Below are positions 7,908 through 53,102 of a stretch of 64,000 bases of DNA, in pieces. Under the pieces are notes generated by a model. The model saw only the letters and a list, made by a program, of their open reading frames with translations, was not told the DNA's origin and did not search any database. Numbering within the stretch: the stretch's first letter is position 1; each line of letters begins with the position of its first letter. Origin of the DNA: a virus (Duplodnaviria; Caudoviricetes); the IMG/VR virus record IMGVR_UViG_3300020048_000093, positions 13,745 to 77,744 of that record. One strand, written 5' to 3'. The translations under genes and the position numbers were made by a program.

Positions 7908-9377
7908 ATGATTTTGGTACGTGTAAATAAAGCAATGATCGATGCGTTGATGGAAAAGTCTCGCAAAGGGACGCATTTGGTCCCTGAAAAGAGAATAGTT
8001 ACCCGTGACGGAAAGACCTTCCAGATGACTGTGTGGGTGGATCCCAGGGACAAAGCGGCACCGGCGCAGGGTGGTTTTGACTTTGATGAAAAACCCGTTG
8101 CAAAGAAGAATACCAAAACAGCTGCGGAAATGAATAAAGAAGTATCTGATAAACGAAAAAAGGACGCCTCCTATGAATATCGAGCGAAAGGCGATATGGT
8201 ACAGGTAAGGAAGCCAGGTTCTTCTACATGGGACAATCTTGCACCTACAAAGGATGCCGTTACAGCAAAAAAGCTTTCGGAAAAAATGAATGATGATGAC
8301 GCTTCAGAAGCGCAGATCGACGCAGGTGGGGAAGCCGCACGAGCTCAGGATGACTTCGCCGAACACATGATTGGCAAGGGAAATCTAAAATCTGGTAAAC
8401 TAAAGGATATATCAGTATTGCTCGATAGGCAATTTGGTGTAGATTTGTTGCCAGAAGAGGTTTCTGATTATCTCAGCAAACACGGCATCAGTGATAAAGG
8501 TCTTTCAGTTGATATAGCCGCTTCGATAAGCAAGAAACTGAGATCAGACCTTGTTGGCTTGGCAGGTGGCGGACATACGGTACCAAAAGTTACAACGACC
8601 GAAAAAGCAAATCGTACGCGAAGTGAGATACTCAAGGAAGCAAGCTTAGCCTTGGATGAAGTAAGAAATTTCCACTATCACGGAGACAAATTCAATACAA
8701 CATACGAGTTGGCACGTGCAATTGGAAACGGTGAGATTGACACTGCATCCGCCTTGCATGAAGTTCGCGAAGCGTTCTCCATGATGACAAACCGCAAGCT
8801 GCACAATGGGAAGTTCCCAGATACTTACGCGATTGCAAACGCTATAGACGAATTGAAGAAACCAAGCAATGAAACCCTTGAACAGAAAAAGGTTAAAACT
8901 TCTGTAGAACCAGAAGTAACCTATGAAAAATATCATCATCACGGAGATGACGATGCAATGAACTACAAGGAAATGCCAAAGGATACGCCAAAAGAATCCG
9001 TCAAAAAAAACGAAAGCCTTCTTTCAAAGCTTGGGATCGGGCCAGTTACGGAAGCTGAAAATGAAGAATTTGAACAGTTTATGGTTTGGGAAAAGGAAAA
9101 TAAATATCAAGCAAGGAATAGCAGCAGTCCGTATCAGGCAAGAAAGGACCTAAAAAAAATACAGGAGCTAATGGAGATACATCCTGTTGTTTTGATTCCT
9201 GTGATGGAAAAATTGTATGCGCAGGGGGTGAATTCCGACGCACTTGCGCCTTTCGTGAGTATAATTAAAAAAACGCGAGAGACAGGTAGTCCTTTTACGG
9301 TAGATAAGCCCATGAAATTCGGTATAGAAAAGTCTATCGGCCTGTTCGTCCAGGGTATGATTAAGGGCAAAAAATAA
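7908..9377 (+). CDS. Putative capsid-packaged protein with shared N-terminal sorting motif
   Basis: EKSRKGTHLVPEKRIVTRDGKTFQMTVWVDP then QGGFDF; lies between portal and MuF. Confidence 0.75.
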   Translation: MILVRVNKAMIDALMEKSRKGTHLVPEKRIVTRDGKTFQMTVWVDPRDKAAPAQGGFDFDEKPVAKKNTKTAAEMNKEVSDKRKKDASYEYRAKGDMVQVRKPGSSTWDNLAPTKDAVTAKKLSEKMNDDDASEAQIDAGGEAARAQDDFAEHMIGKGNLKSGKLKDISVLLDRQFGVDLLPEEVSDYLSKHGISDKGLSVDIAASISKKLRSDLVGLAGGGHTVPKVTTTEKANRTRSEILKEASLALDEVRNFHYHGDKFNTTYELARAIGNGEIDTASALHEVREAFSMMTNRKLHNGKFPDTYAIANAIDELKKPSNETLEQKKVKTSVEPEVTYEKYHHHGDDDAMNYKEMPKDTPKESVKKNESLLSKLGIGPVTEAENEEFEQFMVWEKENKYQARNSSSPYQARKDLKKIQELMEIHPVVLIPVMEKLYAQGVNSDALAPFVSIIKKTRETGSPFTVDKPMKFGIEKSIGLFVQGMIKGKK

Positions 9378-9379
9378 GC

Positions 9380-10714
9380 ATGGAATATAAACTCACAGTC
9401 CAGAACGTCAACGATACCAACCGGCGACATAAATACCTGGCGGCGGTAGATTCTCTGGCCAAGGCCATGAAGGTACCGGTGTCGCTCAAGCCAAAGAAGT
9501 CCGACAAGGAAGAGAAATTCCCGTATCGTTCCTATCAGGATCTTGTGCAAAAGTGGGTTTATTACTATGCCGGTATGCTGGACCAGATATATGATACGGC
9601 TTGTGAGGTGTTTGACCTTCCAAAGATTCAGACATTCAGCAAGGCTGCGTATTCTGGAAAGCTCATGTACAAGGGCAAGATTCTATATCAGCCAGACACC
9701 GGATTGCCGATAACCAACAAACAGTGGAATGACTTCGTAAAGGCACTGGACCGGTATCTTAATCAAGGGCTTGAGAATGCCGGAGACAGAATCGTTCTTG
9801 ATTCGCAAGCCCTCGGGAAAATCCTTGATCGTATGCTCAAATACCAGTCATGGGGCGGGATAAAAAACACCAGATTGGAAGACATGCTTTACAAGAAACA
9901 TAATTTTGACTATTTATCCGATGAAAGAAACTATCGCAAGGTGTTCGGGGTTCCGGATTATGAGGCAGACCGACTGACCGTGGCAAAAGAGCATTGCGCC
10001 ATGTATATTCGGGGTATTGAGGATCAAACCAGGACGGCGATAAAAAAGACTTTCATAGCCGGAATAAAGGAGCGGAAGTCAAAAAGTGCCGTCTCCCAGG
10101 ATTTGTTCGACAAGTTCGGATCATTGAATAAGGACTGGCAGCGGATAGTTGAAACGGAAACAAACGACAATTTGAACACCGGAATACTGTTATCAGAACG
10201 AACGGTAATGAAAGAAGGCGATAAGCTCTATTTCCAGCGCATTGAAATGAAGGATGAAATAACTTGCGATCACTGCAACCGGATAAACGGCATGGTGGTG
10301 TTATGGTCAGATACGGCTCTTGAAGACGAAAGAATTCAAGACCAATATGCTGACGTAGCGATATGGGAAGGAAAGACCCGCGTGGGACATGGATCGAAAG
10401 ACGAATGGGTAGCGGCCGGCAGTCAGCATCCCTGGTGCAGGGGGCTATGGACAAAGTGGAATCAACCGGAAGAAGGCGAGACAATCAGCCTGCATGACGC
10501 GGCCATAGCAAAGATGAAAAGCCGTGAAGCAGCATGGGGAGCAGCGGTAAAACAGGCAACTTCCGAATTCAACAATAGCGGTACTAAGAACCCGGACGAT
10601 ACGACGGCCGGCTTCCGTGAACGGATCAACGAGCTTTACAATGCTTCGGGCGAAAACGATAAGGGCAAGTGGGCGAAGGACTGGTTCAAGAATAACTGGC
10701 AAGGAGACGAATGA
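9380..10714 (+). CDS. MuF / SPP1 gp7-like minor head protein
   Basis: WQRIVETE, TCDHC, HPWCRG motifs; head-module position. Confidence 0.88.
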   Translation: MEYKLTVQNVNDTNRRHKYLAAVDSLAKAMKVPVSLKPKKSDKEEKFPYRSYQDLVQKWVYYYAGMLDQIYDTACEVFDLPKIQTFSKAAYSGKLMYKGKILYQPDTGLPITNKQWNDFVKALDRYLNQGLENAGDRIVLDSQALGKILDRMLKYQSWGGIKNTRLEDMLYKKHNFDYLSDERNYRKVFGVPDYEADRLTVAKEHCAMYIRGIEDQTRTAIKKTFIAGIKERKSKSAVSQDLFDKFGSLNKDWQRIVETETNDNLNTGILLSERTVMKEGDKLYFQRIEMKDEITCDHCNRINGMVVLWSDTALEDERIQDQYADVAIWEGKTRVGHGSKDEWVAAGSQHPWCRGLWTKWNQPEEGETISLHDAAIAKMKSREAAWGAAVKQATSEFNNSGTKNPDDTTAGFRERINELYNASGENDKGKWAKDWFKNNWQGDE

Positions 10715-13700
10715 TGAATGCATTCCAAAGACTAATGATACCGGTTCAAGATATGCTAGAAAAGGCTCGGCGATATAACCCGAAACTGGTACAGAGAACA
10801 ATAACCGTTACGAATAAAGACGGAACAACATACACCAAGCGGGCATGGGTAGACCCTACCGAAAAGGACGCTGAAAAGCCGAAGAATGTACAGTTCGATC
10901 TTTTCGGAGGCGACGATGCCCCTATTCTCGCCGTTTCGGTGGAAAAAAAGGCCGATAGCGGCACGGTGAATAACCGGACAGATACAGGAGAGGAATCGAA
11001 CGATATCAAGAGCGTTCGGCAGCGTGTTTTCAATTCCATGAAAAGAGAAGGGTATACTCAAAAAGAGGCGGATTACAGTACTGAATTCAAGAAACGGGTG
11101 TCAGATACTCTCAAAAAGAAAGCAGAAATCAGTGCCCGAAACAGGGAAAAAACCAATGTTTTGCCCGTAAAAGGCCCAGAAACTACCCGTAAACAGGTGG
11201 AATTACCTGAAATTGAGGGCGAAAAACAAGCCGTTTACGATACCGTACATGAAACCCCGCCAAGCAACCGTGGTGATTTGGACGTTTCAATAGTTGATAC
11301 CGACTTCAGGGATTATGGATCATGGTCCGGAAAAGGAAAGAACCTCAATCCAGCTGCACGAGGAAAGCTCAATCAAGAGGTTGCGGAATTACTTTTGAAA
11401 AGCCGGGATTCTCTCACAGAAGAGGACAAGGGAAAGATTCAGAAATATTCAGGCTTCGGCGGGGTGAAGGCAGCCGACGAGCGCGGGGTGCTTTATGACT
11501 TTTACACCTCTCCGCCTGTCGCAAAGATGGCATGGAAGATGCTGGACAAGATAGTTCCAGTCCAAGCAGGGGAATCGGTGCTTGAACCCTCGTGCGGATC
11601 GGGAGTGTTCTTTGACGTTACTCCTGCCGGCGTGGAGAAAACCGGCGTCGAGTTGGATACCAGGACGGCCGCAGTTGCCTCTATCCTTCAGGAAGGCGCA
11701 AACATACATACCGGATCATTCGAGCAATTCAATATGCACAACACCAAGCGGTTTTCACGGGTTATAGGCAATGCGCCTTTCGGGGACCGGTCGGTTACAA
11801 CCTCATTCATGGATATGCCGGAAGAAAAAAGCCTTGATAAGTATTTTATATCTCGGTCAATTGACGCTCTTGTGGACGGCGGGTCAATGGGGCTTATTGT
11901 GCATCCGGGTGTGCTCGATGGGAAAAGCAACAGGGATTGGCGAGCCGAACTCCAAAAGAAGGGTCAGTTCATGGGAGCGGTACGGTTGCCGAACGGATCA
12001 TTTAAGCATACACAGACCGGCGTGCAGCCGGATATGCTTTTTTTCCGCAAGTATCCCGAAGAGGTCCAGAAGCGACTCGATCAGCTCGATGAGTCCGGCC
12101 TGAAGGAAGCGGGTTTCTGGCACGAGGGATGGGCGGAAGGAACCTACTACGATGAAAACAAGACCCATATCCTCGGGGAGCTAAATGAGGGAGGTGGAAA
12201 CTGGGGATCGGACGTTGTTGAAGGGGACCTTTCACTATCAGATATGGACAAGGCAATAGCGACATTCAATCCAGAACCGGACAAAACAACCGCTGATTTG
12301 GACAAACTAAACAGCATGACGACAAAACTGGCCGGCGAAAATAAAAAAGTGGAATCCATGCTTACCGAATCAGAGGCCGAGGCGGTTGCCTGTAAAACAC
12401 TTTCCGTTGGCATGACAAAGAGCATTGACGGAAAAGTCTACCGGCTCAATGAAAACCATCGTTGGGAACTGGTAAAGGGAGCCGACGAAACAACTTCTGA
12501 AAAGCTGGAAAAAGTGAAAGCCATTGCCGAGAAGGTGAAGGCGATCCGGGAAGCGATGCATAATGACGAACCGGTAGATGATCTCCAGAGGGAGGCCCGT
12601 ACTCTGCTCCAGGACTATAAAGATGAGCATGGGACAAACCCGATGGATGACAAGGATGTAAAGCGCCTGCTTACGGCCCATGCCTCACTTTCCGGAGTGT
12701 ACGAGGGCCTGGTCGATATAGATGATGATATTCTCAACAAACAGAATGTATACGCCAAAGAGATTGATATTGTGGACGGCCATAATCCGGCCGTCACGGC
12801 CCTTCTTACCCTGCAGAAAAACATGCTGGAAGCAACACCTGCAAACATACAGAGTTACTTTCCAAACGATATCGACGCGCTTATGAAGGAATTACAGGAC
12901 AACAAAGACTGCTTCCTGACACCTGACGGAAGCTGGGAGCTGCGGGAAGACTTCATTGCCGGTGACGCGTGGGTAAAAATTGATGCCCTGAAAGCCGCAA
13001 TCGAGGAACACGATGGAGATAAATGGGTCAATGAGCGGGCAAAGTGGCAAGCGGGAATTACCGATCTGGAAGCGGCAGTTGGCTGGACAAGCATCGAAGA
13101 AGCCGAATTTACGCCTCAATCTTCATGGATTCCTGAAGAAATCATAAATAAATGGGCCAAAGACCCGGACGGAATGGCTATTCAATATGCCCTGTCAGAC
13201 AAGGTTCTTTCCCGGAACGAAGAGGGAAAGTGGGGCGTCAAGGGAACGAAAGACAAATATATCCGTCCCAAAAACTGGCGGGATGAGGGTGAAACGATAG
13301 AAGCTGGAACTTGGTACCCATTGAATGACGAAATCGCTTATTTTCTCAATCTGCAAAAACAGCGATCAAAGAATATCGATACCGAAACGTATGACACCAA
13401 CGCACGGGAAAACTTCAAGAACTGGGTAGCAAACAATCCGAATGTTCGGATGGAGCTCGAAGCACTGTTTAACCGTAAGTTCAATTGTGATATCGGTACG
13501 CCTACTAAAACCTATGCGGTAAAGATAGACGGTTGGAATCCGTCCGTTATCTTGGGCGGGCATCAGTGGCAGACGATCCACCACCTCTATCGCGCCGGGA
13601 AGGGTATTACGGCTCTAGGTACTGGCTTTGGCAAGACACTGGCTTCGGTTGGCCTTATGGCCCTGCTTCGACAAGAAGGCAAGGTGAAGCGCCCTATGGT

Positions 13701-16446
13701 GCAGGTCCCTAACAATAAGGTCAAAGACTGGGTAAAGACGTTTGCAAAGGCCATGCCGGGCCTCAAAGTCGGATCCGTTGATCCTGAATCTGAAGGATAC
13801 GGCAATCAAGTCAAGCGCTATAAAATGTACCAGGATCTTGCAAATGGCGATTACGATGTAATAATCCTGCCTGAATCGTCGGCAACCGAAATTCAATTGA
13901 GTGAGGAAGAGGACGCCAGGATAACTTCGGACGTTGTATCTGCTCAGATTATGGACAAGACTGCGGGGAAGAGTGACCGGAAGGTGGCAACCGCGAAAGA
14001 ATCGGCTCTTGGAAAGATGCAGAACGGAAAAACAAACAAAACCATTTCGTTTGAGGATCTTGGATGCGATGCGCTTTTCGTAGATGAGGCCCATAACTAC
14101 AAAAATTTGTTCAGCAGCACGCTGTCCAGGGAAACAGGAATGAATGACGGTCGCCGTTCAGATCGCGCCATGAGTCTGTTCAAGAAAAGTGAGTTTATAC
14201 GACATTCACATGATGGAAAAAACGTGTTCCTTTGCACGGCAACACCGCTTACGAATTCGCCTCTCGAATACTACAATATGCTCATGCACGTAGCACCGGA
14301 AATGCTTACAAAGCTGTCGATAAACAATATCGATGACTTTATCAGGAATTTCGCCGATATCGAAACGGGCATGAAGTGCGACTGGGGATCGGGAAAAGCC
14401 AAAGAAGGCCGGATACTGAAGGGATTCAAGAATCTCCGGTCCCTGCAAGATATGTTTTTCAAGTATACCGATCTTCAGAACGATTCAACAAAAATCGGTC
14501 TGGCAAAGCCGTCCGCAAACAATGTTCCCAATGTGATACCAATGCAGAAGGAGCAAACGGAAGAATTGCGTGATATATCGGCCCAGCTTGAAGAATTCAA
14601 AAACGCAAGCAAAGACGAAAAGGCCGCAAAATATGAAGGAGAGAATTATCTTACCTTCTATTCCAGGATGCGGACCGCTTCACTCGATCTTGAGCTCTAT
14701 GATCCGGTAAAGTACAAGGGGTGGAAAAACCCGAAGCTCGAAAAGCTTGCCCAGAACGCAATGGACAGCTTTACAGCGACTTCAGGGGGGCAGGTGATAT
14801 TCTGCGACCGGGTATTGTCCGGGGACGGCTCCATGAACATGCACGATAAGATCAAGGCCGAATTAGTTGCCAAAGGATTCAAGGAATCTGAAATTGTCGT
14901 AGTAAACGGGACAACAAAGACCGGAGGGGCAAAAAGTGATTCTGCCCTTGAGCACCTGGTATCCGAAGCGATAGACGGCTTCAATACGGGAAAGTACAAG
15001 GTTATAATCGGGACGACGCCTACGCTCGGGGAGGGTGTTAACCTTCAGAAAAATAGTGCAGCCCTCCATCATTTTGATATTCCATACCGTCCCTCAGACT
15101 TCATTCAGCGAAACGGTCGTATCGACCGTCAGGGAAACAAGCAGGGGGATGTTGCGCTGCACACGTACCTTTCGGCCGGCACAATCGACAATTACTCGGT
15201 CAATCTGGTCCAGAACAAGGCAAACTGGATCGACCAGCTCTTGAAAACGAAGTCGAACGTGTTCATGAACCCGAATGATGACTCGTATGTTGATCCGGAC
15301 GAATTGCTATTGGCCCTCACGGAAGAATGGGGAGACAAGGATAAGGCCGTAGATCGAAGAGCCGAAATGAACAAAATCAAGGCAGACAAGATTCAGGAAG
15401 CCAATCAAAACAAGGTTCATGACATGATGGGGGCATTGAGCCAGATGCGCGGTTCAATAAATGGATATCAGGGGGACAAGGGAACGGTACAATATCAGAA
15501 CCGGGTCAGGAAAATTCAAAGCATCGAAGATTCTCTCCGTAACAATACCGAATTCAAGAATCTCGATTTGCTTACAGAAAACCCTCCCGATTTTATCTAT
15601 GACAAGAAAAAGAGGCGAGCATACCAGAAAGGCGATAAATTCATGCTCACGGATGGAATTTTTGAGGTGAAATCGATAAACCATAAAAATCAGAAAATGG
15701 TACTCGTGGGTCTTGATGGGGCAACCAGCACAGAATGGTCGGCCAGTGATGGTTTGTATGGAAACTATTCGTACAAAGGAAAGGCCAACGACGAAGAGAT
15801 AAAGAAACTCCAGACGCTTTACTCCCAAAATGAATATGCCGAACAAACACCGGAATTCAAGAAGGATAATTACAAACGGTATATGTCGTTTGTTAAAATC
15901 AGACCACAAGATTTAATTTTCGAGGCACGCGAGGATACTGAGGGAAAAATCCGTATAGGACGGGTAAGCAGCTATACGCAGCGGGATCGGACACCGAGCT
16001 CGCTCATCAATCCGTATGAACCGGAAGGACGTTCCCGTATCGAAGCATACTTGAAGGGAAACGATCATGAAAACATGGATGCCTCTGCCGCGAGTGACCC
16101 GGTATTCAAAGAACTGGGGCTATCGGAAGGAATAAAAACGGCAGTAATAGCCGATTATCATGCCAAACCGGAGTCGAAGTTTATCGATGCAGAAGTTGGT
16201 AGTACCTGGGTTAGTGCCAAATCGATAGCGGAGAAGATGAACGTTGCTCTTGGTAATTCCGAAAATGACAAGGTACGGGAGTATGATATAAAGAACGTAG
16301 CAGAGATGCACCCTGACTACGAGACTGATTATGAACGAATCGGGCGTGATTATGATTGGCGAATACGTCGTAAATCGGTAGAAAAGGCAATAAAATCTGG
16401 CTATCTAAAACCGCAAAAACTGCTTATAATGGGCATAAAGAGGTGA
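10711..16446 (+). CDS. DarB-like N6-MTase-fold plus SNF2 (DExH) helicase fusion, putative injected protein
   Basis: YSGFGG, FYTSP, LEPSCGSG, GNAPFG (MTase); LGTGFGKT (13615), DEAH (14083), QRNGRIDRQG (helicase); shared N-terminal motif. Confidence 0.9.
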   Translation: MMNAFQRLMIPVQDMLEKARRYNPKLVQRTITVTNKDGTTYTKRAWVDPTEKDAEKPKNVQFDLFGGDDAPILAVSVEKKADSGTVNNRTDTGEESNDIKSVRQRVFNSMKREGYTQKEADYSTEFKKRVSDTLKKKAEISARNREKTNVLPVKGPETTRKQVELPEIEGEKQAVYDTVHETPPSNRGDLDVSIVDTDFRDYGSWSGKGKNLNPAARGKLNQEVAELLLKSRDSLTEEDKGKIQKYSGFGGVKAADERGVLYDFYTSPPVAKMAWKMLDKIVPVQAGESVLEPSCGSGVFFDVTPAGVEKTGVELDTRTAAVASILQEGANIHTGSFEQFNMHNTKRFSRVIGNAPFGDRSVTTSFMDMPEEKSLDKYFISRSIDALVDGGSMGLIVHPGVLDGKSNRDWRAELQKKGQFMGAVRLPNGSFKHTQTGVQPDMLFFRKYPEEVQKRLDQLDESGLKEAGFWHEGWAEGTYYDENKTHILGELNEGGGNWGSDVVEGDLSLSDMDKAIATFNPEPDKTTADLDKLNSMTTKLAGENKKVESMLTESEAEAVACKTLSVGMTKSIDGKVYRLNENHRWELVKGADETTSEKLEKVKAIAEKVKAIREAMHNDEPVDDLQREARTLLQDYKDEHGTNPMDDKDVKRLLTAHASLSGVYEGLVDIDDDILNKQNVYAKEIDIVDGHNPAVTALLTLQKNMLEATPANIQSYFPNDIDALMKELQDNKDCFLTPDGSWELREDFIAGDAWVKIDALKAAIEEHDGDKWVNERAKWQAGITDLEAAVGWTSIEEAEFTPQSSWIPEEIINKWAKDPDGMAIQYALSDKVLSRNEEGKWGVKGTKDKYIRPKNWRDEGETIEAGTWYPLNDEIAYFLNLQKQRSKNIDTETYDTNARENFKNWVANNPNVRMELEALFNRKFNCDIGTPTKTYAVKIDGWNPSVILGGHQWQTIHHLYRAGKGITALGTGFGKTLASVGLMALLRQEGKVKRPMVQVPNNKVKDWVKTFAKAMPGLKVGSVDPESEGYGNQVKRYKMYQDLANGDYDVIILPESSATEIQLSEEEDARITSDVVSAQIMDKTAGKSDRKVATAKESALGKMQNGKTNKTISFEDLGCDALFVDEAHNYKNLFSSTLSRETGMNDGRRSDRAMSLFKKSEFIRHSHDGKNVFLCTATPLTNSPLEYYNMLMHVAPEMLTKLSINNIDDFIRNFADIETGMKCDWGSGKAKEGRILKGFKNLRSLQDMFFKYTDLQNDSTKIGLAKPSANNVPNVIPMQKEQTEELRDISAQLEEFKNASKDEKAAKYEGENYLTFYSRMRTASLDLELYDPVKYKGWKNPKLEKLAQNAMDSFTATSGGQVIFCDRVLSGDGSMNMHDKIKAELVAKGFKESEIVVVNGTTKTGGAKSDSALEHLVSEAIDGFNTGKYKVIIGTTPTLGEGVNLQKNSAALHHFDIPYRPSDFIQRNGRIDRQGNKQGDVALHTYLSAGTIDNYSVNLVQNKANWIDQLLKTKSNVFMNPNDDSYVDPDELLLALTEEWGDKDKAVDRRAEMNKIKADKIQEANQNKVHDMMGALSQMRGSINGYQGDKGTVQYQNRVRKIQSIEDSLRNNTEFKNLDLLTENPPDFIYDKKKRRAYQKGDKFMLTDGIFEVKSINHKNQKMVLVGLDGATSTEWSASDGLYGNYSYKGKANDEEIKKLQTLYSQNEYAEQTPEFKKDNYKRYMSFVKIRPQDLIFEAREDTEGKIRIGRVSSYTQRDRTPSSLINPYEPEGRSRIEAYLKGNDHENMDASAASDPVFKELGLSEGIKTAVIADYHAKPESKFIDAEVGSTWVSAKSIAEKMNVALGNSENDKVREYDIKNVAEMHPDYETDYERIGRDYDWRIRRKSVEKAIKSGYLKPQKLLIMGIKR

Positions 16447-16449
16447 ATT

Positions 16450-16833
16450 ATGTTTTATGACAATGAATTTGTTGATACATTGGAGAAAAGCCTCAAGATT
16501 CCGGCAGGGATACCCTATTTATACCAGATGGCGAAAACCATCGGGGACATGCTGGAAACAAACAAAATGATATACAAATCTTTCGGCGTATACTGGTGGG
16601 CAATGAAAGAGGCACTACAGGCCTATTGTCCAAACAGGAACGCATGGTTCATGGGAACTTACACGGATCACCTCATGAAAGAACGGGCGTGGCATGGTTC
16701 TTTGTTCCGATCCGTTCTTGCAGCGGTATACTATCATAGCCAGCAGGACACCTATACCAGTGACCATTACTGGGAAGACAGCGATGGAATCGAGCACGAT
16801 TACACGCTTTTCGATGAAGACGCGGGATGCTGA
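16450..16833 (+). CDS. Hypothetical protein downstream of the DarB-like gene
   Basis: RBS gaggtg; begins LEKSLKIPAG. Confidence 0.8.
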   Translation: MFYDNEFVDTLEKSLKIPAGIPYLYQMAKTIGDMLETNKMIYKSFGVYWWAMKEALQAYCPNRNAWFMGTYTDHLMKERAWHGSLFRSVLAAVYYHSQQDTYTSDHYWEDSDGIEHDYTLFDEDAGC

Positions 16834-18191
16834 AGTCAATAATTTTCGGGGGTGGGAATATGCAAGGATTGATAGTAAAGGGTAAAAAACCCGTCGCGCA
16901 GCCGGTGCTGGGTATTCCCGTTACCCATGAAATGGTAAAAGCATTGAATACGGGAAAGCTTGTCCAGAAGAAAATACAGGTGACAAATAAGTCTGGAAAA
17001 ACCTTCCAGGTAAACAAGTGGGTAAAGCCGGATCAAGGCGGTTCATCCGGAAAACCCAAAAAAGACCCTGAAGACGTTCGAGGTTCGAAGCACGGATACG
17101 GTATGCACAATATCCAGAACGGGGACAAAATATCGTTCAAATCGAATGGAAAAACAATGATGGGTACGGTAGTTGACGATTCCAGCCTTGACGGATTGGT
17201 CGTAAAAGATGCCGTGGGAGATAAGTTTCCAGTGGCGTGGAAGGAAATAACCGGATTCAGGTCGAGTACAGGATCAAAGGTCCCTCGGGACAAAGATGGA
17301 TCCGGTAAAGGCGGGGGAGGTAAGGGTGGCGGCCGGGATGATGATGGAAATGTCACAGAGAATAGCCCGGATTTTATTAGCCCTGAAAAGTTCAATGCAG
17401 CAGAATGGAAAGTCCAGCATGATGATCCAAACGCAACGGAGGAAAGCGTGCTTGAGAGTTTTGGCAAAGATACCAATGAAATAAAAAAGGCCATATCAAC
17501 GACTCAGGCTAGACTGAAGCGTCTTGAACAAACCATTCATACGCATAGGCTAGCAGGAGAGGGAGAAAATGCGGTTTATGATGATGAGCGCACGCAAAAG
17601 CATGTAGAAATTATTAAAAAGATTTTAACGCCAGAAAAAATACGGGGAGCCATGCCTGAAGAGGGTAAAAGACCAACCTTCACAATGCTAGGAGGCCGTG
17701 GCGGTTCGGGTAAGTCATGGTTTGATGGACAGGTTTATCATTCGGATAAAGCAATAGTTCTGGATGCCGATGAGATTAAGGGCATGCTTCCGGAATATGA
17801 GGGATATAATGCTGAACAGGTTCACGAAGAGTCAAGTGATATTCTTGAACGTATTCTTGCAATGGCAAAAGAACAAGGCTTGAATGTAGTTCTTGATGCA
17901 ACCATGAAAACAGAAAAATCAGCTATGAGGAAAATCGAAGCTTTCAAAGGTTCTGGATATCGAATCGAGGCCCACTATATGCACCTCCCTCGTCAGGAAG
18001 CAGCAAAGCGGGCAGTATCAAGATTTATGGGAAAGACTAAACGGTATGTACCTATCGGTGTTGTTTTGTCGAATACCGGAAACGAAGCAACATTTGAAGC
18101 CGTCAAGAAACATGCTGACGCCTGGAGCTTCCGAGACAACAATGTTGAGAGGGGTCAGGAACCGAAACTTATTTCGGAATACAAGGCTTGA
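16827..18191 (+). CDS. Zeta-toxin-like P-loop kinase with shared N-terminal motif and SH3-like module
   Basis: MLGGRGGSGKS (17691), DADEIK, HEES, NVVLDATM, RAVSRF motifs. Confidence 0.85.
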   Translation: MLKSIIFGGGNMQGLIVKGKKPVAQPVLGIPVTHEMVKALNTGKLVQKKIQVTNKSGKTFQVNKWVKPDQGGSSGKPKKDPEDVRGSKHGYGMHNIQNGDKISFKSNGKTMMGTVVDDSSLDGLVVKDAVGDKFPVAWKEITGFRSSTGSKVPRDKDGSGKGGGGKGGGRDDDGNVTENSPDFISPEKFNAAEWKVQHDDPNATEESVLESFGKDTNEIKKAISTTQARLKRLEQTIHTHRLAGEGENAVYDDERTQKHVEIIKKILTPEKIRGAMPEEGKRPTFTMLGGRGGSGKSWFDGQVYHSDKAIVLDADEIKGMLPEYEGYNAEQVHEESSDILERILAMAKEQGLNVVLDATMKTEKSAMRKIEAFKGSGYRIEAHYMHLPRQEAAKRAVSRFMGKTKRYVPIGVVLSNTGNEATFEAVKKHADAWSFRDNNVERGQEPKLISEYKA

Positions 18192-18216
18192 TAAAGCTAT
18201 CGTATAGTATTATAGT
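18188..18216 (+). promoter_or_regulatory. Internal promoter for the 51-aa ORF
   Basis: TTGATA, 17 bp, TATAGT; the -35 overlaps the Zeta stop codon. Confidence 0.7.
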
Positions 18217-18232
18217 TCAATAGGAGGCAATT

Positions 18233-18388: not shown

Positions 18389-18391
18389 ATC

Positions 18392-18419
18392 AAAAGGGTC
18401 CCTTCGGGGGCCTTTTTTA
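18392..18419 (+). terminator. Intrinsic terminator
   Basis: GGGTCCC-TTCG-GGGGCCT hairpin followed by a T tract. Confidence 0.85.
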
Positions 18420-18514
18420 TTTGGTAATGATGTATAGATCATGCATGGCAAGGTATTGTATAATAAATGCAAGTTGCTTCATCATATCCAGTAAATGAAG
18501 GCGGGCAAGCCAGA

Positions 18515-20641
18515 ATGTATTTTATCCTTCCAGTTCTAGAAAAAGCTCGAAAAAATCTCAAGCTCATTCCCAAAACAGTGACCGTTACCCGCGAAGGGAC
18601 GACATACGAGACTACAGTATGGGTTTTGCCTACTAAAAAACTCACTCTAAACAACGATACTCAGTTTGATCTGTTTGCTGATGCCGATATTCAGGAGAAA
18701 AGCCTGAAGGCGAGATTGCTCAAGAATATACGAGAAGGTACAAACGTGACCTTTCTCGAAAACGGTAAAATTATTTCAGGCATGGTTGTCTATTCCGGTT
18801 ATGAATATAGCAAGATTGTATCAAAAAAGATCGCATACCGAGTTGATAATGACGATATCAAGTCAATCGTTCCGGAAAAAAGGCCCGAAGAGATAGCAAA
18901 AATCATAAAAGCCGTGACCCCTGAAACACGGACCGCAACGGAGGCACAGTTATTTGGAGCCGATCTGAAAGAAGACTTACCTGAAGTTTATCACTATGAA
19001 CCTACCAGGGTGGAAGAGGAGCCATACAGCTCAGATAATCGAATCTGCTGGGATTTCCGTGATGTAATTCCGGTTCAAATTGGTTTGATATCCGAAAAGG
19101 ACATACTTACTAAAGAACCGCCGAGCTGGATTCCGTTAATTGATTCCGATGAACGATTCCGATCGGTAGGAAACAGGGTAGAAGCAGTAAAAATAGGCGA
19201 TAATGATTACCTCATAAGGGGCGGAGCCGGAACTGTTAATTATGCCAGGGTAAATCTCGATGTATTGGCTGCAACACAGGATTATTACCTTAAAAGGGCA
19301 AAGGCCTTGGCGCATAATAAGTTTGAAGAGACAAAGGCCAAACGAAGAGACAACGGGTCGAGCGATGCCTATGTGAAAAAACACCCGGTAAGGGTCGTGG
19401 GTGAGAATCGCGCCATGTTCACAACACTCGAAATGTCAACGAGTTTTATGGGATTAAGAGGCAATGCACGATTTAAACCAATCAAGGCCGCCATAGACGA
19501 TATGAAGCAGAAATTATCCGACATGAACATCCAGCTCGAAGAAAACTACACCTCATACAATAAAGGGCAGCAGACTGCTTACGGTAATTCGGGGACAAAG
19601 ACAGACCTGCTCGATAAATACGGCGTCCTGGTGAAGAGACAGAATGGGGATGCGATAACGAAAAAAGAAATAGGTGATATCAGTACCGCACTGGAATCAA
19701 TATTTTCTGTATTTGGCAATCGGGCAAGCATGGCAAAATCCTTCGGGTTGAAAATAAGCCATTCCGGTACGGTCCTGATGCACGCACGAAAGGCGTCTGG
19801 TATATTTTTTCCTGCCTTCAATGCGATTGGCGTTACCATGCAGGGCGGACCGCGCGGCTTCGGGTTTACTTTGTCTCACGAATGGGCGCACTTCATGGAC
19901 AATTACCTCGGTACAAAATCCGGCCGACATAACTATGCTTCAGACGACTGGGCCTCGCTGCCGGGACAAATTGCCAGCATTTTCCGGAAAAGCATGGCAT
20001 TGCCTCAGAAATCAGACTACCAAAACCGTACCTGTGAATGTTTCGCGCGGGCGATGGAACAGTATTTTTCCTACAAAACAGGGGAACAGGATGCGCTTAT
20101 AGCAGGGGCAAGCAAGGGGAACCAGGTACCAAAGGGTGAATTCGAGAAAAATCTGGTCCCATTGATTGACCGATTCTTCCAGGAAAACAATGAATTGCTG
20201 AAATCACTCACCTTCAGCGGATTCCCGCTCCAGGGGCGAACGAAGATCCATGGCATGGATATCAGCATCGAGAACAGGAAAGGAAGCGTCCGAAGCGGGG
20301 TTTCGGACAACGGGCATGAATGGCATACGAAAATGCACTTTGCGTATGGATATATCCGGGGAACGGTAGGCAAGGACAAGGATCATCTTGATTGTTACAT
20401 TGGCCCAAACAAGAAGTCGGAAAAGGTATTCATTGTACATCAGAACAATCCGGAAACAGGCGCATACGACGAGGATAAAGTAATGCTTGGGTTTGATGAT
20501 GCTGAACAGGCGAAAAAGGCGTATCTCGGGCAATATGATAGTCCGGCATTTTTTGGTAGTATGGATGCAACGGATATCGAAGCTTTCAAGGGAAAGATTT
20601 TCCAGAGAAAACAGCACGGAAAAAAACTGATAATCAGATAA
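18515..20641 (+). CDS. Polyvalent protein: shared N-motif, SH3-like module, LPD1/zincin-like (HExxH), C-terminal InPase-like domain
   Basis: SHEWAH (19877)...ECFARAMEQY; GRTKIHGMDISIENRKGSVRSG...YGYIRGT.G.DKDHLDCYIG...YDEDKVMLGF. Start could be 18467. Confidence 0.82.
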   Translation: MYFILPVLEKARKNLKLIPKTVTVTREGTTYETTVWVLPTKKLTLNNDTQFDLFADADIQEKSLKARLLKNIREGTNVTFLENGKIISGMVVYSGYEYSKIVSKKIAYRVDNDDIKSIVPEKRPEEIAKIIKAVTPETRTATEAQLFGADLKEDLPEVYHYEPTRVEEEPYSSDNRICWDFRDVIPVQIGLISEKDILTKEPPSWIPLIDSDERFRSVGNRVEAVKIGDNDYLIRGGAGTVNYARVNLDVLAATQDYYLKRAKALAHNKFEETKAKRRDNGSSDAYVKKHPVRVVGENRAMFTTLEMSTSFMGLRGNARFKPIKAAIDDMKQKLSDMNIQLEENYTSYNKGQQTAYGNSGTKTDLLDKYGVLVKRQNGDAITKKEIGDISTALESIFSVFGNRASMAKSFGLKISHSGTVLMHARKASGIFFPAFNAIGVTMQGGPRGFGFTLSHEWAHFMDNYLGTKSGRHNYASDDWASLPGQIASIFRKSMALPQKSDYQNRTCECFARAMEQYFSYKTGEQDALIAGASKGNQVPKGEFEKNLVPLIDRFFQENNELLKSLTFSGFPLQGRTKIHGMDISIENRKGSVRSGVSDNGHEWHTKMHFAYGYIRGTVGKDKDHLDCYIGPNKKSEKVFIVHQNNPETGAYDEDKVMLGFDDAEQAKKAYLGQYDSPAFFGSMDATDIEAFKGKIFQRKQHGKKLIIR

Positions 20642-20651
20642 CGGAGGAAGC

Positions 20652-21250: not shown

Positions 21251-21287
21251 CTATGGCAATATCATATTATTCTAAGGAGAAAGATTT

Positions 21288-25535: not shown

Positions 25536-25544
25536 GAGCGTAAC

Positions 25545-28500: not shown

Positions 28501-30482
28501 ATTCGCAGGATCATGTTCTCGGTATGCTCCACAAGGACGTTCGGGATTCCTATACGCAACGATACCAGAAGGAAATGGGCGAAGCGGGTGGAGAGCTTGC
28601 CAATCGGAATAACGGTAAATTTGCAGCCGGTTCATGGAAAGACAAGCTCAATGGTTATCTGGAAGAAAAAAAGAAAGCTGATGCCCAGCAGGTTGATATG
28701 TTCGCGGACCCAGAGGATATCAAACAAGATGACGGGACGGAAATAAAGTCTATCGGAAAGCGTGCCGAGACGCAGCTTGCATCGATGTTGCCGCAGCTTG
28801 CACAAAATCAACTTCGAGGTCAGCACTTTAAGGTCAATACCATGACTTCAAAGGGCGAGCGGCAGCGGGCGATTAAAATGCTGGAATCGGCAAAGCGTAT
28901 CAATCTGTCGTTCGGAACGGGAAAGGGAAAAACCATTATCTCAATCGGGGCTTTTACAGACCTGAAAGCGCAAGGCAAGGCTAAAAGGGCAATTTTCGCA
29001 GTTCCCTCTGTCGTCCAAAGCCAATTTGGCAATGAGGTCAATGTGTTCTGTGAACCGGGAAAATTCAAGGTTCAGTCAAATCCCTCGCTCTCTCGGGACG
29101 AACGGATTGAAGCCATGAAAGAAGGCAAGAATGATATGGTGGTTTTCACTCACCAGTCGCTGCGGGATGATCTGGTTCACCTTATGGCCAAAAACAACAA
29201 TAAAACCCCAGAAGCCATGAAAGAGCACTTCAATTCGCTTGGAGCAAAGGAGCGTAAGGAATTGCTCGGGGAAACGCTCAAAAAAGAAGGTATCAATTTT
29301 GATATGATGACTGTTGATGAGGCGCACTACACAACGAACCGGAAGGGAAAGGAAGACACCACCCTGTCGAACGTCCTGGATGCCCTTAATCAGAACGTAA
29401 CGTACTTCATGAACCAAACTGCTACTCCGGTCAAGAATGACGCGTCAGAGGCCTTTGACATGCTGCACAAGGTAGCTCCGGAAAAGTTTACTGACCGGAA
29501 TGAGTTTATAAAGCGGTATGGGGTCGATGCGAGCTTCTCGAAAAAATCTCTTCAACGGCTTATAAACAGGTACAATTATGCCAGTCAGACCGTAACCGGG
29601 ACAAAGCGAATCGACAACAAGGAAACCGTCAAAATGGTTGGTTCTCAGGCAGCCGAGTATGATAAAGTCGAAACTATGTTCAGAAGGGCAAGCAAGGCGG
29701 ATAGAGCAGGAACGGCCGACGTGGAAGCCATGAAATTTCTTTCTCCGAATTCCTTCAAGAATGTTCCCGAAGAGAAGCATGAAGAAATTGCCAAACGCCT
29801 GCAGCAAGCTTCTGGAACGATCAAGGAAGAGGCGTTGAACCGGGTAGTGAATCAATACGATTGGAAGAATAATGCAAAAGTCGCACGAACACTTGAGCTG
29901 GTAGAAGCAAAGAAGTACACCGAGGACAATGCGAAAACAGCAAGCAAGGCAGGAGGACAGAAGCCGGGAGTCATATTTGCCCACAATATCCAGACGGTCG
30001 AGAACCTGAGACAGGCCATGACCGAAAAGGGGATGCGGGTGGGAATTATTCAGGGGAGCATGAGCGGTCAAGAAAAGGAAAAGGTAAAAGTGGGATTCAA
30101 TCCTTCTGATCCAAAAGATCGTATTTTTGATGTGCTTCTCTGTTCCGACGCCGGGGCAACTGGTTTGAATCTGCAAAATGCCGGGTATCTTATGAATTTC
30201 GACCTTCCTCAAACATCCTGGGTGAAGCAGCAGCGCGAGGGTCGTATAGACCGCATGGGCCAGGCTCACTCTGAAATAGAATACCATGATATCGTGACTG
30301 ATACGGACCACGAAAAAAAGAAGTGGGAACGTATTCAACGGAAAAAGGCGCTGGGAGCAATATTCGAAGAGGATCCAGGCGTACTCGATGATACTGGTTT
30401 GGCCGCTACTATCGCCAATGTCAAAAAAGAACGGTACAATACCGGTACTGAACAAACACGCGATGAAAAGAGGGCGGCATGA
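25545..30482 (+). CDS. Large coiled-coil plus SNF2/DExH helicase protein (second helicase, no MTase motifs)
   Basis: SFGTGKGKT, DEAH (29316), TATP, GATGLNLQ, QREGRIDRMG; RBS aggag. Confidence 0.88.
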   Translation: MSFFMIEDYSYNDSDLANLRKSGALNLEVGGYTELSMREYFAMQKSLKVANEYIRMQKGIKIPAGGRWITVHPNGGDEKGTPLLIQETGEKGTAHVIAGAGGKLNGLKLNKIKSKEEYKEKSEQRNEEKKKKKLEDRLAEQETVSQMSSEKRKEYKEGKKAAKINAKETESNDKKARAEAEQEFVNHMAGVMGWEQEEIEEDFAERRKAIYQQLEDCDDKALEKKLGKELEHINKAEERAIKSQRSNFLSASKEAIKQIQRELLVDSEMRQQVEAGLGGSSGAEDVIRKENAGNSKGFQAEYRDNAEKKGGLDNKALETEKREAFEKRMTEIAQENPNLAAMISGGIKTNKAINDIKKDVYTKEETPITPISEVDKKTELLKNYLEMKKKLADIDKKNEPGVQINLEGTPEEAEDSVDGLVYGKGVSIDYAELLDNELEDEAEQIKTERQAAVHSSLLDTIDKNPGGSAKWIANGNYSGFSSIALAAMKTEGIDRDAVDILGVGASSKLVAMMARRSMTKEDYQDFSYGMQKYHEEVNESIAKDAVEKGKDLIARAESIKAEIDANPDDLAVAKELNESRLSYLDEANRVVGQALGSLESSAAMVLALKDGKDPESLEVNLGAVSNEDAIVKMHALGLEKGDFTINAAGENKVVTITGVDKLVKPVDAEELRIEQEVSAIKAGAMDEDGWLPAGLVERTSESYEDPGPDAQLPVGDVDNQSLGFDENGEVNAKGYHDTEEAAHRTLGEMPEGSMAYKPISDLTSSEQTDLRRYWENNIYKGSMSEATAGQDFAEGKGISRQAAWSKFLKGENGGSESATMAAIQNDLITNHSTEDMFGEKDLPPLARVTPGKYETYRANVTGARELFDAIAELNNPDTVIDAKEAKKESDKLEAALPKKLDELYSAQMKDHYLKFMSGHTEDEFKAGETRQERSPWGEYVRMHGDVGKAQEAVQDRIRGDFNDKFIKNYGRVTGKRLKTRSEKIRNSQDHVLGMLHKDVRDSYTQRYQKEMGEAGGELANRNNGKFAAGSWKDKLNGYLEEKKKADAQQVDMFADPEDIKQDDGTEIKSIGKRAETQLASMLPQLAQNQLRGQHFKVNTMTSKGERQRAIKMLESAKRINLSFGTGKGKTIISIGAFTDLKAQGKAKRAIFAVPSVVQSQFGNEVNVFCEPGKFKVQSNPSLSRDERIEAMKEGKNDMVVFTHQSLRDDLVHLMAKNNNKTPEAMKEHFNSLGAKERKELLGETLKKEGINFDMMTVDEAHYTTNRKGKEDTTLSNVLDALNQNVTYFMNQTATPVKNDASEAFDMLHKVAPEKFTDRNEFIKRYGVDASFSKKSLQRLINRYNYASQTVTGTKRIDNKETVKMVGSQAAEYDKVETMFRRASKADRAGTADVEAMKFLSPNSFKNVPEEKHEEIAKRLQQASGTIKEEALNRVVNQYDWKNNAKVARTLELVEAKKYTEDNAKTASKAGGQKPGVIFAHNIQTVENLRQAMTEKGMRVGIIQGSMSGQEKEKVKVGFNPSDPKDRIFDVLLCSDAGATGLNLQNAGYLMNFDLPQTSWVKQQREGRIDRMGQAHSEIEYHDIVTDTDHEKKKWERIQRKKALGAIFEEDPGVLDDTGLAATIANVKKERYNTGTEQTRDEKRAA

Positions 30483-30700
30483 CAGACCATACAACCAACC
30501 TTTGCACCCTGTTGGCAAAGATCGAGAAACGAAAAGATGAAACCGTATTGGCAGGACAGAAAATTGAACTTGCCATAAACCGGGCGCATAATGGTACGCA
30601 GGCCAATGTAGAGCGGTTGCGGCATAAGGCACAAGGCGGGGATCAAGCTGCCGAAACGGCCTATCTATCCCTGCTCCGTGCAAGAAAGCGAATCTCTTGA
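30479..30700 (+). CDS. Small helical hypothetical protein
   Basis: Coupled (atga) to the helicase stop. Confidence 0.6.
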   Translation: MTDHTTNLCTLLAKIEKRKDETVLAGQKIELAINRAHNGTQANVERLRHKAQGGDQAAETAYLSLLRARKRIS

Positions 30701-30726
30701 CATAACACAGGAATACCAACTACACT
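30697..30726 (+). promoter_or_regulatory. Putative promoter upstream of the capsid operon
   Basis: TTGACA, 18 bp, TACACT. Confidence 0.55.
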
Positions 30727-30772
30727 ATATGTACAGTTCGTTTATAGAAATACGTGACGCTAAATAATATTT

Positions 30773-30816
30773 GGGTCACATGCCCTTAATCGGGTGTGTG
30801 GCCCTTTTTCTTTTTT
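30773..30816 (+). terminator. Terminator-like hairpin just before the protease gene
   Basis: 13-bp stem (with G-U pairs) GGGTCACATGCCC/GGGTGTGTGGCCC, loop TTAATC, then TTTTTCTTTTTT. Confidence 0.75.
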
Positions 30817-30834
30817 CGGTTCAACAGGAGACGC

Positions 30835-32283: not shown

Positions 32284-32296
32284 GGAGGGAAAACAT

Positions 32297-33712: not shown

Positions 33713-33718
33713 GCTGAT

Positions 33719-33746
33719 GGCCCGGCGAGAAATTGCCGGGCTTTTA
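33719..33746 (+). terminator. Terminator after the major capsid gene
   Basis: GCCCGGC/GCCGGGC stem followed by TTTTA. Confidence 0.65.
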
Positions 33747-33765
33747 TGCAAACAGGAGATTTCGA

Positions 33766-33960
33766 ATGGGAACGCTTAATGATACTATGTGCCGGGCATG
33801 TCCCGCACTCAAAGACCTTGCAGAACGACTTGCTCTGATGACCACGCTGGTCAATGAACTGCGGGCAGATCACAATGCACACTGCGCGATGGGATCGGGA
33901 ACACATACCGCTGCCGACGCTACCAATGTTGTAACCAGCCCCGCCATGGCTGTTCTGTAA
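33766..33960 (+). CDS. Small head-associated/decoration-like protein
   Basis: RBS caggag; LVNELRADHNAH coiled-coil; follows the MCP gene. Confidence 0.65.
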   Translation: MGTLNDTMCRACPALKDLAERLALMTTLVNELRADHNAHCAMGSGTHTAADATNVVTSPAMAVL

Positions 33961-33970
33961 AGGTACATAC

Positions 33971-35083
33971 ATGATAAACGCCGTTGTAAACAATCATGAC
34001 ATTTTGCTAACTCTGACTGACGCTTCGACCTTACCCGGATTTTTAGGGTATCGACTGGAACGTAAAACAGAAACCGGTGCATGGTTTGTCTGGAACGGCG
34101 TTTTTTTTGCCTCAAGCGGGTATGCTCCTCTGCCGGGAATTCGCTTTTCCGATTACGATATGGCAGATGGTCTTTATCAGTACCGATACGCCATAGACAC
34201 GGGCGTTTTATCCGAATATCAGTATTCCGACTGGGTGAATATCAATGCCGGCCGTGTTGGATGGTCTTTTGAAAACTATACTCCGCCAGAAGGTCTTTTT
34301 GGCGAGGTTTTGACCGCCGACGACCTCCGATATACCTATCTTTGGGGCATCGACTTCCGTGCTTCAAATGGTGATATTTTCACCGATGCACAAGTAAGAA
34401 CGAAAATAAACTCGGCAATTGATGAAATTGCACGGGCATTAAAGATAACAATCAAGAAAACACGAGTACACTGTCAGCCAGGTGCGGAACTAGTTGAGGG
34501 AATCGACTATGACGAGGCAGAAGATCCTTACGCATATAGACATGATAAGTGGCGACGCTCTGGGCGTATTGCCTTGCGAAAACGGCCTATTATTTCAATA
34601 TCTCGCTTTGATCTATACAGCATATCAGACCAGAAAATCCTTGATCTTATGACCTGGATAAGTGCGGATCACCGAAAGGGAATTATTAACTTTTTCCCGA
34701 AAGCAGGGGCCGATGGACAGTTTCGGATTGCTCCGGCTTCTATGTCGATGGGGATATCACTGATAGGAGGTGATTATCCGCATGGGTACAAGATCGATTA
34801 CGTCGCTGGATATGAAAACGCGAGCAAGGTTCCTTCAGACTTGCGTGATGTGATAGGTAAAGCTGCGGCATGTAAGTTGCTGAATATAATTGGAGATGGA
34901 TTGATAGCCGGTTTTTCATCATCTTCATTATCAATGGATGGAGTTTCGGAAAGTTTTTCTTCTACACAATCGGCAACCAATGCGTATTTCGGCGCACGTA
35001 TCCAGGTATATCTAAAGGATATTGAGTCTTATTTAAAGGAAAATCGGACAAAATTCGGCTCTTTCGTAATAGGAAGCATATAA
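33971..35083 (+). CDS. Head-tail adaptor (neck) protein with N-terminal Fn3-like domain
   Basis: LWGID, IDYVAGY, VPSDLRDVIGKAAA, SLSMDGVSESFSST motifs. Confidence 0.8.
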   Translation: MINAVVNNHDILLTLTDASTLPGFLGYRLERKTETGAWFVWNGVFFASSGYAPLPGIRFSDYDMADGLYQYRYAIDTGVLSEYQYSDWVNINAGRVGWSFENYTPPEGLFGEVLTADDLRYTYLWGIDFRASNGDIFTDAQVRTKINSAIDEIARALKITIKKTRVHCQPGAELVEGIDYDEAEDPYAYRHDKWRRSGRIALRKRPIISISRFDLYSISDQKILDLMTWISADHRKGIINFFPKAGADGQFRIAPASMSMGISLIGGDYPHGYKIDYVAGYENASKVPSDLRDVIGKAAACKLLNIIGDGLIAGFSSSSLSMDGVSESFSSTQSATNAYFGARIQVYLKDIESYLKENRTKFGSFVIGSI

Positions 35084-35688
35084 TGTCCGGAACCACAGTA
35101 GAGCTTATCAAGGCCAAAGACTACAGCAAGCTTGTACCTGAAAAAATCACCAGGGCCGATGGGTCCATCGCAACATACTGGGTATCGCCCGAGGATCGGA
35201 ACGAAGGAAAACTGAAGGGTCAGCAGAATTTATTTGACGACGCACCAAAGACCGGTGGCCGTGGTTATTTCGATGAGCTCGACAAGGGCGCTGAAGACCT
35301 TCAGATAAAACCTTTGGTAAATAAAGTTGCCGCGTATGACCCTGAGCTCGCAAAGCGACTGGAAGCAAAATATAAAAACTATCATTTTGACCGGGACACG
35401 AAAGAAAAGGACATAGAAATAGACTTTCAGACGGCATGGTGCCTGAAGCGTATGGCGGATCGTCCGGGGGAAGCTAAGGACTTTCAGGCAGAGTATCATG
35501 AGAAGACGGACAAGATGGTATCCATGTTGAACAACCGGAAAAACGCCATGCTGAAGATCAAGAAGGGGTCATCCGTGAGAGTTGGGCACGAAAATGGGAT
35601 AATAGACGGATTTTCCAAACGAGGCTTCCCTATGGTACGCGTAGGGGCAATATCACGTCCTTTATTCCATGAGGAACTTACGTTATGA
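35083..35688 (+). CDS. Putative packaged protein with the shared N-terminal motif, embedded in neck genes
   Basis: LIKAKDYSKLVPEKITRADGSIATYWVSP, then QQNLF. Confidence 0.75.
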   Translation: MSGTTVELIKAKDYSKLVPEKITRADGSIATYWVSPEDRNEGKLKGQQNLFDDAPKTGGRGYFDELDKGAEDLQIKPLVNKVAAYDPELAKRLEAKYKNYHFDRDTKEKDIEIDFQTAWCLKRMADRPGEAKDFQAEYHEKTDKMVSMLNNRKNAMLKIKKGSSVRVGHENGIIDGFSKRGFPMVRVGAISRPLFHEELTL

Positions 35689-53099: not shown

Positions 53100-53102
53100 T
53101 AT

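Follow-up and report, generated by a model that had tools for sequence, protein, structure and literature searches.

Do short peptides of the type Q-x-x-L-F, carried by several head-module proteins of a phage (Duplodnaviria; Caudoviricetes), dock these proteins on DnaN, the sliding clamp of the bacterial host? The question is raised by a stretch of 64,000 nucleotides, here called the window, which comprises bases 13745-77744 of the 77,744-bp IMG/VR record IMGVR_UViG_3300020048_000093, a phage record with direct terminal repeats. A sequence-only reading of the window had picked out five such internal peptides, four of them just after a common hairpin, and proposed that injected effectors would dock through them on the host clamp. 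Our sequence comparisons support the view that the peptides form a real and selected short linear motif, beyond what chance or shared ancestry would give, and we consider it about 60% probable that this motif binds host DnaN, thereby tethering the carrier enzymes to clamps on DNA.

Five proteins of the head module have a common N-terminal module, consisting of a short helix (LEKAR-like) and then a beta-hairpin of the pattern KLVPxKxTVT..G.T[FY]....WVxP (Table 1); searches of the window proteins gave no Pfam model for either the hairpin module or the motif. The peptide Q-x-[D/N]-L-F follows 11-12 residues past the WVxP in three of the five hairpin proteins, QGGFDF takes its place in one, and the Zeta kinase has none. 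A further peptide, QVDMF, is found in an SNF2 protein of 1645 amino acids (aa). Translation of the open reading frames (ORFs) of the window placed all five motifs exactly where the sequence-only reading had put them, its spacing of about 8-15 residues after the WVxP agreed with the 8, 12, 11 and 11 residues seen for the four hairpin motifs, and its motif-free Zeta kinase (ORF 16827-18191) indeed has the hairpin and no motif. Gln occupies position 1 in all five motifs, with F, F, Q, V and G at position 2, and all of the carriers are encoded in the head module, between the portal/MuF and the capsid genes.

The string Q..LF occurs eight times in the 24,757 aa of the genome's ORFs, three of these being sites in question, and about 0.02 occurrences would be expected by chance in five post-hairpin stretches of 20 aa. 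Since the five modules are paralogues, conservation is a better test than this chance expectation. A sixth peptide, QKSLF in the partial ORF at 1-105, had also been listed among the clamp-like motifs; that listing is unsupported, the peptide being at chance level as judged from its basic flank and from the lack of any relative of its ORF in five related phages.

A whole-protein search with the 201-aa protein gave 21 homologues with identities as low as 39%; Q47, L50 and F51 were invariant across the 22 aligned sequences, whereas positions 48-49 and the surrounding linker varied. In the AlphaFold2 model of this protein (predicted local distance difference test score, pLDDT, 79.5), the one protein for which a disordered-linker placement of the motif was modelled, the hairpin at residues 18-23 and 29-34 is followed by a coil at residues 35-60, with pLDDT of about 50-65, that contains the motif, and then by a helical bundle and a small barrel. 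A Foldseek search of the model against the PDB gave no match at E <= 0.001; the small C-terminal barrel resembles SH3/Tudor-like domains by Foldseek. The DarB-like orthologues at four loci in related phages keep QFDLF or QPDLF.

The 1645-aa SNF2 protein has no hairpin; among 40 homologues, which reach down to 34% identity, 37 retain Q-x-x-[LMF]-F and all 40 the final F, with positions 2 and 3 varying. The motif of this family lies in an inter-domain linker and is usually followed by G, D or S and then by acidic residues. It had been described as standing before the second helicase domain, a description to be corrected in that the site lies about 58 aa before the only helicase core detected by Pfam (ResIII, from aa 1114). 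Some homologues of the protein carry inteins (Intein_splicing, LAGLIDADG), and others have added InPase or LPD3 domains, which suggests that the SNF2 protein (25545-30482), despite having no hairpin, also belongs to the class of polyvalent proteins considered further below.

Beyond this phage, a profile of the five window N-termini retrieved 172 proteins at E <= 1e-3 among 1.84 billion cluster representatives, and re-scanning of these proteins with a hairpin-only model gave 169 modules. Q..[LMI]F was present within 45 residues in 43 of the 169 modules, where the frequency elsewhere in these proteins (11 in 76,885 aa) predicts 1.1; this is an enrichment of about 40-fold over background, to be read with a possible bias toward motif carriers in mind, since the retrieval profile contained motif columns. 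Among the 60 modules with a hairpin-only score of at least 36 bits, 26 had the pentamer and 11 the hexamer form. The first Q was mostly found at +12 or +13 from the hairpin, with a range from +7 to +21, and tandem copies were present in eight modules, while the motif was missing from 113 of the 169 as well as from the Zeta hairpin protein of the window. Ten records of related phages, found via C-terminal patterns of the 201-aa family, carried the pentamer in 17 of 27 distinct modules as defined with hairpin-only models, and an alignment of the module searched against IMG/VR gave one locus, having the hairpin without the motif. The sequence-only reading had named conservation in homologues as a check on its proposal, and such conservation was found in the 201-aa family, in the wider hairpin family and in the related phages.

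The consensus from the 43 modules is P-x-[GAS]-[AV]-Q-[FLYG]-D-[LM]-F-[DEA]-[QDE], with the two residues after the motif mostly being D, E or Q; the pentamer may be summarised as Q-x-[D/S/N]-[L/M]-F with an acidic tail. Counting the first motif of each module, position 2 was F in 18, L in 9, G in 7, Y in 4, H in 2 and A in 1; position 4 was L in 32, M in 7 and I in 4, and the last residue was always F, choices that the search pattern itself had fixed. The Gln is not an artefact of the regular expression, because the Q-free pattern (any)-phi-D-[LM]-F past the hairpin had Q as its first residue in 27 of 27 cases. The hairpin family includes QLDLF itself, four times, and also QHDLF, QPDLF and QPDIF. 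A hexamer of the QGGFDF type, Q-x-G-[FL]-x-F-[DE], stands at the post-hairpin place in 13 representatives, and pentamer and hexamer interchange at one site among close relatives; as close relatives of the hairpin of the 489-aa protein carry QGSLF at the same place, QGGFDF is probably a register variant of the same motif.

Dalrymple reportedly defined QL[SD]LF as a clamp-binding motif in 2001. The definition in use is Q-phi-x-[L/M]-[F/L] or Q-phi-x-[L/M]-x-[F/L], where QLxLF binds most tightly, position 3 has a slight preference for Asp and position 2 is tolerant; such motifs lie in disordered tails or loops with mostly acidic flanks, and they include those of Pol II (QLGLF), Pol III alpha (QADMF), UmuC (QLNLF), Pol IV (QLVLGL) and Hda (QLSLPL) (PMC11139829). 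In phage Mu, the MuC protein binds the clamp via QHDLF and QPDLF, required for clamp-dependent late transcription, with a consensus of Qx[D/E][L/M]F in this Mor/C family (PMC12867686). The motif described here shares with the clamp-binding motifs the Gln at position 1, the ending in L/M and then F, a favoured Asp or Ser at position 3, the acidic C-terminal flank, the disordered linker and both registers, the interchange of pentamer and hexamer being seen in known clamp ligands too. The clamp-motif interpretation of the sequence-only reading was thus borne out as far as the selected motif, its consensus, its pentamer and hexamer forms, its acidic C-terminal flank and its linker placement match the two published descriptions (PMC11139829; PMC12867686).

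With MuC there are further likenesses, as both are phage proteins with the same relaxed consensus, a non-aliphatic position 2 (H and P in MuC) and sometimes two copies, and Mu likewise relies on host Pol III. However, MuC is a small transcription activator with terminal motifs, whereas the carriers here are large enzymes of the virion module with the motif past a common hairpin tag, and the known bacterial carriers are replication and repair enzymes rather than phage head-module proteins. Several mobile-element or toxin proteins target DnaN, namely Tn7 TnsE, Caulobacter SocB and the clamp-binding polypeptides of Staphylococcus phages Twort and G1; these also make use of the clamp cleft, whether for locating replicating DNA or for arresting replication, yet none is known to be a polyvalent protein packaged in virions. 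A functional parallel to the DarB-like protein is offered by the eukaryotic DNA methyltransferase DNMT1, which is tethered to the sliding clamp PCNA (PIP box) and acts on newly replicated DNA, although clamp, motif and domain of life differ. In the literature the string QLDLF occurred in 16 papers, and 13 of the 14 matches listed dealt with the clamp or with replication; QFDLF was found in no paper searched, and our literature search gave no paper that describes such motifs in virion proteins or polyvalent proteins.

Searches of the phage genome for DnaN, PolA, PolB and Pol III alpha found none of them, and the early module is without a clamp loader. Having neither a clamp nor a DNA polymerase of its own, the phage should depend on the host replisome, with host DnaN rings being loaded on phage DNA. 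The early region, upstream of the window (genome 1-13744), encodes a YqaJ exonuclease, RecT, an SMC-like ATPase, a DnaQ-like exonuclease, a Lin1244_N initiator-like protein, an SSB ending in DDIPF, and Dam.

Binding to DnaN seems to explain these findings best because of the close consensus match, which extends to the Gln, the preferred Asp, the acidic flank and the pentamer/hexamer dimorphism, because the SNF2 family has the motif without the hairpin and the spacing between the two varies elsewhere, and because the phage depends on host clamps; the stability of the motif across very divergent phages also suggests a conserved partner. The L/M-F of the motif would plug subsite I of the DnaN cleft and the Q would plug subsite II, and the proteins thereby tethered to clamps on DNA would be a methylase/helicase, an SNF2 translocase, an InPase protein and two proteins without assigned function. 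We infer from gene context and from the PHROG label 'virion structural protein' that the carriers are packaged in the virion and injected. They may act after injection or, equally, in the virion-producing cell, where these late proteins would be abundant, and possible benefits would be a coupling of methylation or translocation to replication and a removal of pyrophosphate at the fork, the latter already speculated upon for InPase by Iyer et al. (PMC5512222). Localisation to DNA appears more plausible than a poisoning of the clamp or a competition with host clamp clients.

Several observations weigh against DnaN binding, or against parts of it. Known clamp-binding motifs prefer an aliphatic position 2, where the phage motif often has F, Y, G or Q, and clamp hexamers have L/M at position 4, where QGGFDF has F. 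The motif-bearing modules mostly read WVLP (32 of 43) and the motif-less ones WVRP or WVKP, so that the cassette largely represents one hairpin clade and its recurrence is partly due to descent. The host clamp clients could not be displaced by the few dozen molecules that an injection would deliver, and since all carriers are probable virion cargo, a role in capsid loading predicts the same distribution of the motif. When the early and replication proteins of the phage were scanned, no comparable terminal clamp-like motif was found. The notion that every InPase head protein carries the motif was ruled out, as the portal-fused InPase proteins of E. coli phage ECML-117 and of a Pbunavirus (Pseudomonas) are without it, and the hairpin is likewise present without the motif in Bacillus phages CP-51 (gp27 and gp28, directly upstream of the portal) and JL (gp68). 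The host, finally, is suspected, rather than established, to belong to the Spirochaetota.

The most substantial alternative, which we regard as rather unlikely, is that the motif is part of a capsid-loading signal, either with the hairpin or alone in the SNF2 protein, with its likeness to clamp ligands being coincidental and with the scaffold/protease, the portal, the MuF-like protein or the inner face of the HK97-fold capsid as candidate partners. The encapsulin cargo-loading peptides and the T4 capsid-targeting sequence are similar in being short peptides on unrelated cargo of an HK97-fold shell; they have another consensus and are terminal, and here some cargo is without the motif. Such a role would agree with the encoding of every carrier between the portal/MuF and capsid genes, with a motif that is usually 12-13 residues past the hairpin and travels with one hairpin clade, with the span of phrog_1917 ('virion structural protein'), which covers hairpin plus motif of ORF 7908, and with tandem copies, which would add avidity. 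A general loading requirement is nevertheless contradicted by the Zeta protein and the many other motif-less hairpin proteins, hairpin and motif are separated by anything from 7 to 21 residues, and aa 1049 of 1645 in the SNF2 protein would be an odd place for a loading peptide. Furthermore, the motif is nearly constant across very divergent phages, whereas assembly partners evolve quickly, and an unrelated motif would hardly be expected to combine the Q, the L/M, the F, the favoured Asp, the acidic flank and the occurrence as both pentamer and hexamer.

It is improbable that the motif instead is a site for the prohead maturation protease, or that it docks the proteins on some other hub of the host, for instance a chaperone, a protease adaptor or RNA polymerase. 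In many phages the prohead protease does process cargo proteins, and the motif is hydrophobic and exposed, but no similar peptide was found in those proteins in which one would look for maturation sites (capsid protein, protease/scaffold, portal and MuF), and inspection by eye, without a formal search, revealed no obvious processing site of the K-[SA] type between hairpin and motif. No other bacterial hub is known to bind Q-x-D-L-F, and peptides of the SSB-tail class have the reverse order, acidic residues and then IPF, both of which count against another hub. A lack of any function, the motif being a relic of recently duplicated tags plus chance matches, is highly improbable and appears largely refuted by the sequence comparisons. 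The five modules are indeed paralogous, and chance occurrences of Q..LF do exist, such as QKSLF at 70-84 and a QHDLF in a 155-aa ORF at 52776-53243 (-), which starts M-I-QHDLF and has a MuC-type look, was considered as a candidate and was rejected, as it runs antisense to the Avd/template repeat region of a diversity-generating retroelement (DGR) and is almost certainly no gene. Loss of function is hard to reconcile with a linker that diverged while Q, L and F stayed invariant down to 39% identity in the 201-aa family and the motif was kept to 34% in the SNF2 family, or with the enrichment over the background of the same proteins.

With regard to the nature of the carriers, the hairpin module is joined to domains typical of polyvalent virion proteins, a class with several effector domains in one polypeptide and genes beside portal/MuF; the window has N6_Mtase plus SNF2, Zeta_toxin and InPase, beside a portal and a MuF-like gene, and the relatives add ART-PolyVal, LPD1, RelA_SpoT, PBECR1 and MuF_C. 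The polyvalent proteins of Iyer et al., with P1 DarB, share with these both the domain repertoire (InPase, Zeta, DarB-like N6-methylase plus SNF2, LPD1, ART-PolyVal, RelA_SpoT) and the site beside portal/MuF; the paper that defined the class makes no mention of the clamp (PMC5512222). The 43 motif-bearing representatives include 12 with InPase, nine with DUF5661, six with LPD1 and two DarB-like methylase/SNF2 proteins, while the 73 motif-less ones include seven with Zeta toxin, a domain found in none of the motif-bearing set, plus ADP-ribosyltransferases, NUDIX proteins and others. The rule proposed in the sequence-only reading, according to which effectors acting on DNA have the motif and those acting on metabolites lack it, therefore holds for the consistently motif-free Zeta proteins and fails for InPase, DUF5661, LPD1 and function-unassigned proteins, which carry the motif. 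At the place of the motif, the Zeta-toxin hairpin proteins (window 16827-18191 and three relatives) share another conserved block, DPEDxRGSxHGYGMHNI.

Among fused proteins, the hairpin with the motif frequently has an internal position, and in several of them it heads a region of about 450 aa of unknown nature that ends in LPD1, with the N-terminal hairpin of the same protein being without the motif. A recurring cassette in six relatives comprises a hairpin, one or two copies of Q-x-D-L-F, about 450 aa of unknown sequence and LPD1; its tandem copies are about 10 residues apart, often as ...LFDQPP..., and it is often internal, past InPase-DUF5661. Tentatively, hairpin and motif might together constitute a portable two-part address, in which the hairpin would serve capsid entry and the clamp peptide, sometimes in tandem, would assemble the delivered enzymes as a 'tool belt' on host clamps around phage DNA. 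In a radical variant of this idea, the whole module, hairpin included, would be a clamp- or DNA-docking unit and no capsid tag.

Were DnaN binding true, the host clamp would also be a landing platform for virion-delivered anti-defence enzymes, beyond the role so far known for it in serving replication and repair proteins and, in Mu, a transcription factor. It would explain how few injected molecules find DNA, it would give polyvalent proteins a role, and it would yield a large natural collection of ligands for the clamp cleft, of interest for antibacterials aimed at the clamp. The two-part address, if true, would let injected effectors reach their site of action by a route not described before.

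As for the suspected host, related phages were found in Treponema metagenome-assembled genome (MAG) contigs of 113 and 157 kb and an SNF2 homologue in a Rectinema MAG contig of 364 kb. Relatives of the phage have been binned into MAGs of several phyla (Hydrogenedentes, Treponema, Lachnospiraceae and Clostridia), and the assignments may be erroneous for bins other than Treponema and Rectinema, whose contigs clearly exceed the length of a phage genome. The module was matched in only two of 301 Spirochaetota genomes, and Leptospira phages have motif-free proteins similar to the central part of ORF 18467. DnaN of the relative-carrying Treponema MAGs, representing a host group that is suspected only, keeps most of the E. 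coli cleft residues, namely R152, T172, G174, R176, L177, P242, V247, M362, N320 and P363.

The window furthermore encodes the small and large terminase subunits, the portal (6186-7889), the MuF-like protein (9380-10714), a tail module, a DGR cassette and an integrase, together with a capsid protein that shows distant likeness to those of SPO1- and Felix-type myoviruses. The integrase (SAM-like N-terminal plus central domains; 57712-58842 (-)) marks the phage as temperate; a related record of IMG/VR has been classified as a provirus. Among cultured phages no DNA near-identical to the window was found, tblastn with the 201-aa and 489-aa proteins found nothing there, and a portal query gave one distant locus only.

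Table 1. Motif sites, hairpin modules and retroelement parts, in window coordinates unless stated otherwise.
Feature	Coordinates (strand)	Protein or ORF	Remarks
QGGFDF	8067..8084 (+)	489-aa protein (ORF 7908-9377)	aa 54-59; WVDP at aa 43; 8 aa past its P; hexamer-register variant
QFDLF	10891..10905 (+)	DarB-like methylase/SNF2 protein, 1911 aa (ORF 10711-16446)	aa 61-65; WVDP at aa 46; 12 aa past P
QFDLF	18662..18676 (+)	724-aa polyvalent protein ending in InPase (ORF 18467-20641)	aa 66-70; WVLP at aa 52; 11 aa past P
QVDMF	28689..28703 (+)	1645-aa SNF2 protein (ORF 25545-30482)	aa 1049-1053; inter-domain linker, no hairpin
QQNLF	35221..35235 (+)	201-aa protein (ORF 35083-35688)	aa 47-51; WVSP at aa 33; 11 aa past P
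QKSLF	70..84 (+)	57-aa ORF (genome 13676-13849)	six residues before the stop at 103-105; probably chance
Hairpin module	7950..8045 (+)	489-aa protein	phrog_1917 'virion structural protein' matches aa 14-86
Hairpin module	10753..10857 (+)	DarB-like protein	helix, then KLVxxxITVT..G.TY...WVDP
Hairpin module	16932..17030 (+)	Zeta-toxin-domain protein (ORF 16827-18191)	WVKP at aa 65; then DPEDVRGSKHGYGMHNI instead of the motif
Hairpin module	18536..18631 (+)	InPase protein
Hairpin module	35104..35190 (+)	201-aa protein	AlphaFold2 model strands at 18-23 and 29-34
DGR target gene	51478-52650		variable repeat 52529-52642
DGR Avd-like ORF	52704-53099
DGR template repeat	53100-53213		89% identical to the variable repeat
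DGR reverse transcriptase	53441-54508

Two minor observations may be added. The hairpin of phages CP-51 and JL, which are cultured Herelleviridae, reads GKLVKRxVQVKGKDGxxFxRMQWxxP, and the DGR of the window, at 51478-54508, is complete.

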